Source of the DNA: Aquifex sp.
GTDB taxonomy: Bacteria > Aquificota > Aquificia > Aquificales > Aquificaceae
Reading direction: 5' to 3'
Length of the DNA: 45,521 bases
Assembly: GCA_003978875.1 (NCBI GenBank)
Contig: QNXQ01000121.1
Span: 1 to 45,521 of the forward strand
Positions 5,929 to 7,868 of the stretch are shown in pieces. Made by a program: the position numbers and the translations under genes. A model generated the notes under the pieces. That model had not been told where the DNA came from, did not search any database, and saw only the letters and a list, made by a program, of their open reading frames with translations. The stretch's first letter is position 1; the number at the start of each line of letters is the position of its first letter.

Positions 5929-6156
5929 ATGACTTCAGCTTCTATTGCGGAAAAACTAAGAAAACTGAAAGAAAGAAGAAAAAATGGTGAGATAGATGCA
6001 AGGGTATTTTATATATCTCTTCTTCAACTTACAACGGAACTTTTAAACGAGTTAGAACATGAAGACATATCCGATGAAGATGTAAAAAAACAAATTCCCT
6101 TAATTCTTACCTTTCTAGAAGAACAGATATCTAAGTATGCTCAAAGAGGTCATTGA
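5929..6156 (+). CDS. Hypothetical helical protein, 75 aa
   Basis: SD GGGGTGA before ATG 5929; stop overlaps the dnaX ATG. The ORF-track start at 5872 lies inside the SRP RNA. Confidence 0.75.
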   Translation: MTSASIAEKLRKLKERRKNGEIDARVFYISLLQLTTELLNELEHEDISDEDVKKQIPLILTFLEEQISKYAQRGH

Positions 6157-7586
6157 TGGCTTACATTCCTTTTGCAAGAAAATATAGACCTAAATTCTTT
6201 AAAGAGGTCATAGGTCAAGATGCACCCGTACGTATTTTAAAAAACGCTATTCGGAATAACAGGGTAGCCCACGCTTATTTATTTGCAGGACCCAGGGGAG
6301 TAGGTAAAACAACCATAGCGAGGATTTTGGCAAAAGCCTTGAACTGTAAAAATCCCTCTGAAGGAGAACCTTGCGGAGAATGTGAACACTGCAGGGAAAT
6401 AGATAGGGGAATATTTCCAGACCTTATAGAAATGGACGCTGCCTCAAACAGAGGTATAGACGATATCAGAACACTAAAGGAAGCGGTAAATTACAAACCC
6501 ATTAAAGGGAAATACAAAGTTTATATTATCGACGAAGCACACATGCTTACAAAAGAGGCATTCAACGCCCTACTTAAAACCCTTGAAGAACCACCCCAAA
6601 ATACCGTTTTCGTTCTGTGTACCACCGAGTACGATAAAATTCTCCCCACCATACTTTCCAGATGCCAAAGGATAATTTTCTCAAAGGTGTCAAAAGAAAA
6701 AGTTATCGAATACCTCAAGAAAATTTGCGAAAAGGAAAACATCGAGTATGAAGAAAAGGCACTTGAACTTTTAGCCCATGCCTCGGAAGGATGTATGAGA
6801 GATGCCGCCTCTCTTTTAGACCAGGCAAGCGTATACGGTGAAGGAAAGGTAAAGAGAGAAGTAGTTGAGAACTTCTTAGGCATATTGAGTCAGGAAACGG
6901 TAAGAAAATTTTTAAGGTTCCTTTTAAATTCAGAAGTTGATGAAGCTATAAAGTTTTTAAATGAGCTCTCCGAAAAGGGATATAACCTCGGAAAGTTTTG
7001 GGAAATGCTTGAAGAGGAAGTAAGAAATGCTATCCTCGTAAAAAGCTTAAAAAATCCCCAGCTCATAGTAGAAAACTGGAAAGATTACGAAGAGTTTAAA
7101 GAATTTCCCTTAGAGGCACTCCTTTACGTTGAGAATTTAATAAATAGAGGAAAAGTAGAAGCGAGAACAAGAGAACCCTTAAGGGCTTACGAACTTGCAG
7201 TAATAAAGAGCTTAATAGTAAATGAGATACTTCCCATTTCTCAACTTGGGAAGATTATCGGAAAAGAAAGTAGCCAAAAAGAGAATAATGATAAACCTAA
7301 AGAAGAGGAAACCGTAGAAAAAACACCCAAGGAAAAAGAGATATCTCCTAAGGCGAACATAGAAGAAGTTATAAATTCTATACAAAAACACCTTATAAGA
7401 AGAATAATCGAGGATGCTGAAAAGGAAGAAAGAGATGGAAAGATAGTTATTAAGGTTGATGCAAGCCACTACAAAAGCTATAAAAAAGAATTTGAAAAAC
7501 TAAAAGAACTGTATCCTTTTCTTGAATATGAACTTTTAGAAGTAAAAAAAAAGAGTTCAGACCAGAACAAGATGAAGCTGTTCTGA
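6156..7586 (+). CDS. dnaX: DNA polymerase III subunits gamma/tau (0-frame product, 476 aa; alternative -1 product ends at 7648)
   Basis: ARKYRP, GPRGVGKTT, zinc-module Cys residues, DAASN, IIDEAHML, SRC. Confidence 0.98.
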   Translation: MAYIPFARKYRPKFFKEVIGQDAPVRILKNAIRNNRVAHAYLFAGPRGVGKTTIARILAKALNCKNPSEGEPCGECEHCREIDRGIFPDLIEMDAASNRGIDDIRTLKEAVNYKPIKGKYKVYIIDEAHMLTKEAFNALLKTLEEPPQNTVFVLCTTEYDKILPTILSRCQRIIFSKVSKEKVIEYLKKICEKENIEYEEKALELLAHASEGCMRDAASLLDQASVYGEGKVKREVVENFLGILSQETVRKFLRFLLNSEVDEAIKFLNELSEKGYNLGKFWEMLEEEVRNAILVKSLKNPQLIVENWKDYEEFKEFPLEALLYVENLINRGKVEARTREPLRAYELAVIKSLIVNEILPISQLGKIIGKESSQKENNDKPKEEETVEKTPKEKEISPKANIEEVINSIQKHLIRRIIEDAEKEERDGKIVIKVDASHYKSYKKEFEKLKELYPFLEYELLEVKKKSSDQNKMKLF

Positions 7587-7604
7587 AGGTAAAGGAGTTG
7601 TTCA

Positions 7605-7868
7605 ATGCAAAAATACTCAAAGTACGAGATAAAGGCAAAGGTAATTAAAGTAAGAATGCCTGTTGAAGAAGTAGGTTTATTCAATTCGTTAATAGACGGT
7701 CTTCCCAGATATGCACTTACCAGAACAAAGGAAAAGGGAACGGGAGAAGTATTTGTTTTGGTAACTCCTTACAAGGTGAAGGAGCTAATGGAAGCGTTGG
7801 AAGGAATGAAAAAGCACATTAAAAACTTGGAAATACTCGGAGAGACGGACGAAGAACTTACCTTTTGA
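7605..7868 (+). CDS. Hypothetical protein (resembles DUF4911-type small alpha/beta proteins)
   Basis: SD AAGGAG, 87 aa. The family call rests only on the A-x-x-R-T...G...P pattern. Confidence 0.7.

Follow-up and report, generated by a model that had tools for sequence, protein, structure and literature searches.

The dnaX gene of the Aquifex sp. studied here is, on the evidence of aligned genomes, a conserved two-frame gene with a real programmed recoding site. Its annotated frame closes on Leu-Phe (LF), and the tail of tau is encoded in the -1 frame, past a run of nine A (A9). Judging from the conservation of both ends, recoding of some kind almost certainly occurs in vivo.

The dnaX locus and its two reading frames

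The window (the whole stretch of 45,521 nucleotides which we analysed) carries dnaX, then a DUF4911-like gene, then uvrB. The closest named homologs of its DnaX are Aquifex proteins, and the NCBIfam model PRK14953 matches the open reading frame over model positions 1-459 of 488. The features of the locus are the following:

6156..7586, + strand: dnaX 0-frame open reading frame, 476 aa, the unshifted LF-ending product (ORF list; NCBIfam PRK14953)
7350..7538 (limits approximate), + strand: small alpha/beta domain common to both products, probably a reduced core of tau domain V (from the modelled relative L021)
7544..7552, + strand: A9, the presumed slippage run (read in the sequence; exactly nine in 28/28 readable relatives, in two codon phases)
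7547..7553, + strand: A_AAA_AAG heptamer in frame 0 (in the window, yet in 6/28 family members only)
7553..7648, + strand: -1 frame extension with the ancestral tau tail, stop at 7646-7648 (profile and six-frame search)
7573..7575, + strand: +1 frame stop TGA (sequence)
7578..7586, + strand: 0-frame C-terminal Leu-Phe-stop lying over A-V-L-K of the -1 frame, a candidate clamp-binding motif (sequence, alignment)
7605..7868, + strand: downstream DUF4911-like gene, ATG at 7605, overlapped by the tau tail

The gene starts at the ATG at 6156, its 0 frame stops at the TGA at 7584-7586 and the C-terminal letters of the unshifted protein are KKKSSDQNKMKLF. The -1 frame is open from 7532 to 7645, up to the TAA at 7646-7648, the 12 residues of the tail core corresponding to 7580-7615; by simple arithmetic, one A added to the run gives a product of 497 aa. 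Messengers with A8 or A11 would give a +1 product ending KKRVQTRTR, which we ruled out as functional since this ending is not conserved among relatives. We re-read all these coordinates in the sequence and found the A9 run, the two tails with their stops and the heptamer where the preliminary description had placed them; its 476-aa 0 frame, its -1 product of about 497 aa and its 44-nt overlap of the -1 tail with the DUF4911-like gene were likewise re-derived. The DUF4911-like gene also overlaps the in-frame dnaX tails of relatives, and it follows and overlaps dnaX in most of the Aquificaceae loci which we read. A Pfam search of the -1 frame returned no family.

We collected dnaX from the window's family (f1, Aquificaceae), where 85 of 90 genomes matched and 84 were taken in, and from the rest of Aquificota: 7/7 genomes of the sister family f3, 13/39 of f2, 19/21 of f5 and the single genome of f4. 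When the dnaX 3' ends are aligned across Aquificaceae, both the A run and the coding of the -1 frame prove to be conserved. In the genera g1, g2, g11 and g12, 28 of the 30 ends are readable, the other two genomes ending before the site (in G089 the end lies beyond a gap in the assembly, and we took it from the piece that follows). All 28 have exactly nine A, 36-48 nt (10-13 codons) before the 0-frame stop, a 0 frame which ends in LF (LFGS in one, L022) and the ancestral tail in the -1 frame. Six of the seven f3 ends are readable, and all six have the same two tails. Over the whole set the tail is in the -1 frame in 34/34 recoded genomes, which are kin rather than independent but span two families, and in frame 0 in each of the 83 readable Aquificota that are not recoded (51 f1, 13 f2, 19 f5; four unreadable ends were dropped and f4 was set apart). 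The unshifted recoded products measure 445-480 aa.

A profile of the 83 in-frame ends gives 20.6-43.5 bits to the -1 frame in 31/31 recoded genomes scored, at most 8.2 bits to the 0 frame and at most 0.7 to the +1 frame; a profile built from f2 and f5 alone ranks the frames identically. Among 46,100 six-frame segments of the genome (89.5% complete), the -1 segment is the sole match to the tail (E 3e-8, the next being at 0.09). In the -1 frame F and K are invariant with synonymous variation around them. It had been supposed that the logic is inverted, the shift giving the longer, tau-like product, and that the annotated protein is perhaps not a true tau: the profile favours the first view in all 31 genomes, and the low score of the 0 frame agrees with the second. 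Since the tail sits in the -1 frame, the annotated proteins of the clade, that of A. aeolicus included, lack the tau tail. Among the 120 database homologs listed, 68 carry the LF ending, and the DnaX recorded under the name A. aeolicus (P0123, O67707) is one of these. In one named A. pyrophilus DnaX (P0137), known as a protein record only, the tau tail is in frame, in contrast to its close relatives.

The run itself is not a matter of chance, as AAA-AAA-AAA is rare for KKK in the long open reading frames of this genome: it codes 5 of 242 KKK, about 61 being expected from Lys codon use, so that A9 in KKK codons is avoided about 12-fold. A sense run of A9 or longer occurs in 9 of 847 open reading frames. 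Nor is it a sequencing error, as a DNA run which is possibly the source of the window's assembly has the site without indel, and as 28/28 readable genomes have exactly A9. In one DNA contig (run X3, depth 7.8, window 7543) two extra A's make an A11, which may be a strain variant or an assembly error. Pattern scans matched Aquificota only (12 genome and 3 metagenome matches), with A9 in 15/15 loci, mostly of the same genomes; the pattern is clade-specific and has no bearing on other phyla.

Probable slippage on the run of nine A

The preliminary description pointed to an in-frame A-AAA-AAG heptamer at the A9 run. It is incidental, being present in 6/28 members of the window's family, and what is conserved is a run of exactly nine A's. 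This run starts at codon position 1 in 19 of the 28 genes and at position 3 in 9, its length being nine in both cases, and each of the 28 has an in-frame A_AAA_AAA. We found no Shine-Dalgarno (SD) sequence conserved at a fixed spacing upstream of A9 in the window's family (dG is -0.1 in the window), and no conserved 3' hairpin in this family or in f3 (z from -1.6 to +1.8). Both tRNA-Lys CUU and tRNA-Lys UUU are present in this genome, two Lys tRNAs being the condition which Atkins 2016 ties to slippage in Thermus (PMC5009743). Nine A or T is given as the length for efficient slippage (PMC5009743; also PMC1088944), and A_AAA_AAA as a weaker shift site than A_AAA_AAG in E. coli (PMC5009743). The scarcity of the heptamer, the lack of a conserved SD or hairpin and the presence of tRNA-Lys(CUU) make transcriptional slippage the likelier mechanism, and we consider it probable that the A9 site works in this way rather than by slippage of the ribosome. 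The in-frame tail of the A. pyrophilus protein would then be a frame flip which is tolerated because slippage goes in both directions.

The transcripts examined come from one RNA run of one study (X20, near-identical to L002), read as contigs only and with no control A-run. The assembly breaks at the run, with AAGT-A18-GAG in one contig; the study also has three DNA runs, possibly the source of L002, and all three span the site unbroken with A9. The other loose end of the X20 contigs holds GGGAGA, presumably the start of a T7 transcript. The A18 may be a weak hint of slippage, an artefact of amplification or of the library being possible.

Programmed -1 frameshifting of the ribosome on A_AAA_AAA or A_AAA_AAG is a rather improbable source of the long form. 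It could draw on a heptamer which is in frame in 28/28 genes, on the heptamer with strong SD of f3 (6/6) and on a GAGG which some f1 genes have just upstream of the run; seven A's would be enough for it, however, yet there are always nine, in two phases, the SD is absent from the window and unfixed in position in the family, and the hairpin is missing. Moreover A_AAA_AAA is the weaker site in E. coli, and the RNA contig has a long A-run. Phase variation at the level of DNA, in which replication slippage would create A10 cells supplying tau, is very improbable: the A11 contig and the in-frame A. pyrophilus tail speak for it, but the genomes (28/28) and the pattern-found loci (15/15, mostly the same genomes) have A9, and each cell should need a tail which all 117 readable Aquificota have kept. 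That the layout is an error of sequencing or assembly, or that the tail is a functionless relic, is hardly credible even for a window taken from a fragmented assembly, as the same layout recurs in 34 genomes of five genera, some of them in 1-2 contigs, and as F and K of the -1 frame do not vary amid synonymous variation. Slippage of RNA polymerase on A9 is the reading which we favour.

The two C-terminal ends

We modelled the domain which precedes the tail from an in-frame relative (L021). With this model, Foldseek returned E. coli tau domain V at ranks 2-4 (E 0.07-0.095, prob 0.95-0.98), and VIA returned it at rank 4 (Z 4.6, rmsd 4.5, 64 aligned): the match suggests a domain V-like fold but is not significant alone. 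In E. coli tau, an unstructured end behind the domain V core binds the polymerase subunit alpha, and the mutants L627, F631 and L635 weaken this binding (PMC1888804). The hydrophobic residues of the window's tail keep the I/L/F/A/L spacing of E. coli tau residues 624-635, a pattern which was chosen after seeing both; it fits 42/83 in-frame tails and 12/1501 ORF ends of this genome. Profile searches of the window tail against the E. coli tau tail detected no homology, and PF12362 matched weakly in 3/33. Taking position, fold and spacing together, we believe that the -1 tail very probably binds alpha (DnaE).

At the end of the unshifted protein, CTG-TTY-TRA of the 0 frame overlies A/S/P-V-L of the -1 frame. 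Two third bases which are free in the -1 frame, yet make L and F, are T in 34/34 genomes each, whereas five fourfold columns further downstream have T in 25/138. At the first LF site, different residues occur in the -1 frame (S 18, A 12, P 3, V 1), and LF is kept where the -1 frame reads E-V-I-L (L036) as well as where the stop has moved by two codons (LFGS, L022). At the position where recoded genes carry L, a polar residue is the usual one in relatives with the tail in frame. By these counts, L and F of the 0-frame end are under selection.

It had been proposed that this xxLF end resembles a beta-clamp-binding motif, the consensus of which is QL[SD]LF (PMC4976356). The selection on L and F and the LF ends of three other replication enzymes lend the proposal real weight, but the canonical Q is missing. 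In its terminal LF, which S, T, R or K often precedes, the end is like QL[SD]LF or QxxL(x)F; the Q at -4 before LF occurs in 0/30 sequences of alignment A2, and K-M-K, the triplet of residues ahead of LF in the window, bears little likeness to the consensus. In this lack of Q the end is like that of most LigA proteins of the clade, and a ligase peptide without Q binds the clamp of H. pylori (PMC4976356). Of the 1501 long frames in this genome, 12 have LF as their last two residues, and DnaX, LigA, the 5'-3' exonuclease and RNase HII account for four of the 12. The stand-alone exonuclease (L136) ends in QATLF, LigA (L135) in GRLF and RNase HII (L129) in KKLF; these are candidate clamp motifs on enzymes of Okazaki-fragment processing. 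The exonuclease ends in Q-x-x-L-F in 27/27 complete copies (two more of the 29 loci are cut off). The end of LigA is LF, or lies within two residues of it, in 12/12 genomes of the recoded genera, mostly without Q, and in 0/5 genomes of g4, f2 and f5, while in f3 its LF is not terminal; the LF ends of RNase HII are patchy across genomes. The DnaE of this genome contains QNSLF. Its peptidyl-tRNA hydrolase (L134, C86) ends in RQDLF, which may be chance. NAD-dependent LigA had no match with the query used in 10/10 genomes of g3, g5, g6, g7, g9 and g10; these genera, which form one clade and are not independent, also have an in-frame tau without A9. A complex prediction of DnaN with the 0-frame tail, in which no controls were folded, scored 0.19, below the mark of 0.32, and carries no weight in what follows. 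The selection on LF, together with the LF ends of LigA, the 5'-3' exonuclease and RNase HII, makes a clamp motif likely, and we lean towards a docking of the 0-frame end in the pocket of the beta clamp.

The same recoding could operate with an LF end that has no affinity for the clamp. In that case the short form would be just a tail-less equivalent of gamma, and LF would serve another partner or a protease, or be a by-product of the overlap. This is unlikely, if still worth consideration: Q is absent, the residues before LF vary and follow the codons of the -1 frame, and the stop itself forces a hydrophobic residue in that frame, so that part of the pattern is forced. Against this, T at the two free positions is not dictated by the stop, LF outlasts changed -1 residues and a moved stop, and other replication enzymes of this genome share the LF end.

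On balance, and with some reserve, we favour a model which keeps both slippage on A9 and the clamp-docking end. RNA polymerase would slip on A9, and messengers with one extra A would be translated into the 497-aa tau, which would carry the likely polymerase-binding tail. Unslipped messengers would give the 476-aa annotated protein, whose conserved Leu-Phe is predicted to enter the clamp pocket. Domains I-III and the domain V core are common to the two products, and these would co-assemble in the clamp loader, where the tau subunits would tether the polymerase and the LF subunits would be the equivalent of gamma with a gained function: they may hold a second or just-loaded clamp, or compete for the pocket with the LF-ending enzymes of the lagging strand.

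Origin of the late site and its meaning

The dnaX gene of E. coli uses a -1 ribosomal frameshift at A_AAA_AAG, with an upstream SD and a downstream stem-loop. The heptamer is common to E. coli and the window, but here the shift makes tau and not gamma; unlike in E. coli, the heptamer is not conserved in the window's family, and neither is an SD about 10 nt upstream or a hairpin. The sister family f3 is closer to E. coli: in 6/6 genes (L086-L091) an A7 is read as A_AAA_AAG with a strong SD (dG -11.7 to -15.6) that ends 9-10 nt upstream, an E. coli-like spacing, without the hairpin. A tRNA-Lys(CUU)-like anticodon loop was seen in 1/4 f3 genomes (the first tRNA pattern gave 0/5, the second 3/5). 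The sequences of f3 make it likely that this family performs the same switch by ribosomal frameshifting.

In Thermus thermophilus, dnaX undergoes transcriptional slippage on A9 (Larsen 2000, via PMC1088944 and PMC5009743). The window's family is like Thermus in having exactly A9, avoided elsewhere in genes, two Lys tRNAs and no visible ribosomal stimulators, but the Thermus gene reads tau in frame 0 and loses its end by slippage, while here the logic is reversed. This reversed logic itself has been known since 2013: Antonov et al. described reversed ("two-ORF") dnaX in 17 genes of 12 genera, in a survey which included 7 Aquificae genomes (PMC3711429), and their gene list could name an Aquificae member. 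According to Atkins 2016, the gamma stop of a reversed dnaX directly follows the shift site (PMC5009743). The window's gene is like that class in that tau needs a -1 recoding at a poly-A run and in being unannotated. It differs in that the site is about 100 codons past domain III, behind the domain V core, in that the product meets no immediate stop but runs 10-13 more codons to a selected LF, and in that only the last 31 residues or so need the slip. The site would work by slippage as in Thermus and shares the reversed logic of the genes described in 2013, but lacks their early stop. In the literature searched (few subscription journals, no patents) we found no report of the late site, of a selected alternative tail or of a clamp motif in DnaX. 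Reviews give A. aeolicus as making tau only, its dnaX having yielded a single product in E. coli, which speaks against our model (PMC3290774, bioRxiv 2022.11.10.516041), and the accessible part of PMC4320859 holds nothing further on Aquifex.

Other layouts occur in the phylum. Family f5 (L106-L121, L123-L125) has A9 at the gamma/tau boundary in 17/19 genes, at residues 356-369, and the genus g4 (L055-L062) in 7/8, at residues 364-374; in these genes tau is in frame and both shifted frames have near stops, which is the layout of Thermus. In f2, runs of A7 or A8 are found at the gamma boundary in 6/13. The gene of the single f4 genome (L122, G137) has A9 at about residue 365, a 0-frame stop at 375 aa and about 100 aa added by the -1 frame; by its sequence it is an early reversed dnaX. 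Among the recoded f1 genes a run of at least seven A at the early gamma/tau boundary is found in only 1/26. With the early run nearly absent from these genes, it appears that the late site took the place of the classical A9 at that boundary. In quick trees some non-recoded genera fall among the recoded ones, which suggests that the late site arose before the split of f1 and f3 and was lost later in some lineages; a single recoded clade is, however, not rejected (p-AU 0.19, 41 rows).

A broader proposal, to which we would give an even chance, is that the recoding switch decides for each subunit whether DnaX grips the polymerase or the clamp. The switch would have been born by moving A9 about 100 codons and overprinting a clamp motif, with slippage of RNA polymerase in one family and of the ribosome in its sister, and the "tau" of A. 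aeolicus would be a third kind of DnaX, neither tau nor gamma. A. aeolicus is cited as a tau-only bacterium, and its DnaX in the databases is the LF form, without the tail which all other Aquificota keep: if our reading is true, the textbook example would need correcting, and so would the annotation throughout the clade. In the 2002 reconstitution of Bruck, the binding of alpha to tau was reportedly weaker than in E. coli; the missing tail, if our reading is true, would explain this. In this clade the second DnaX form seems to carry a selected function of its own. With four dnaX layouts, this one phylum offers a natural series for studying how recoding mechanisms are exchanged.
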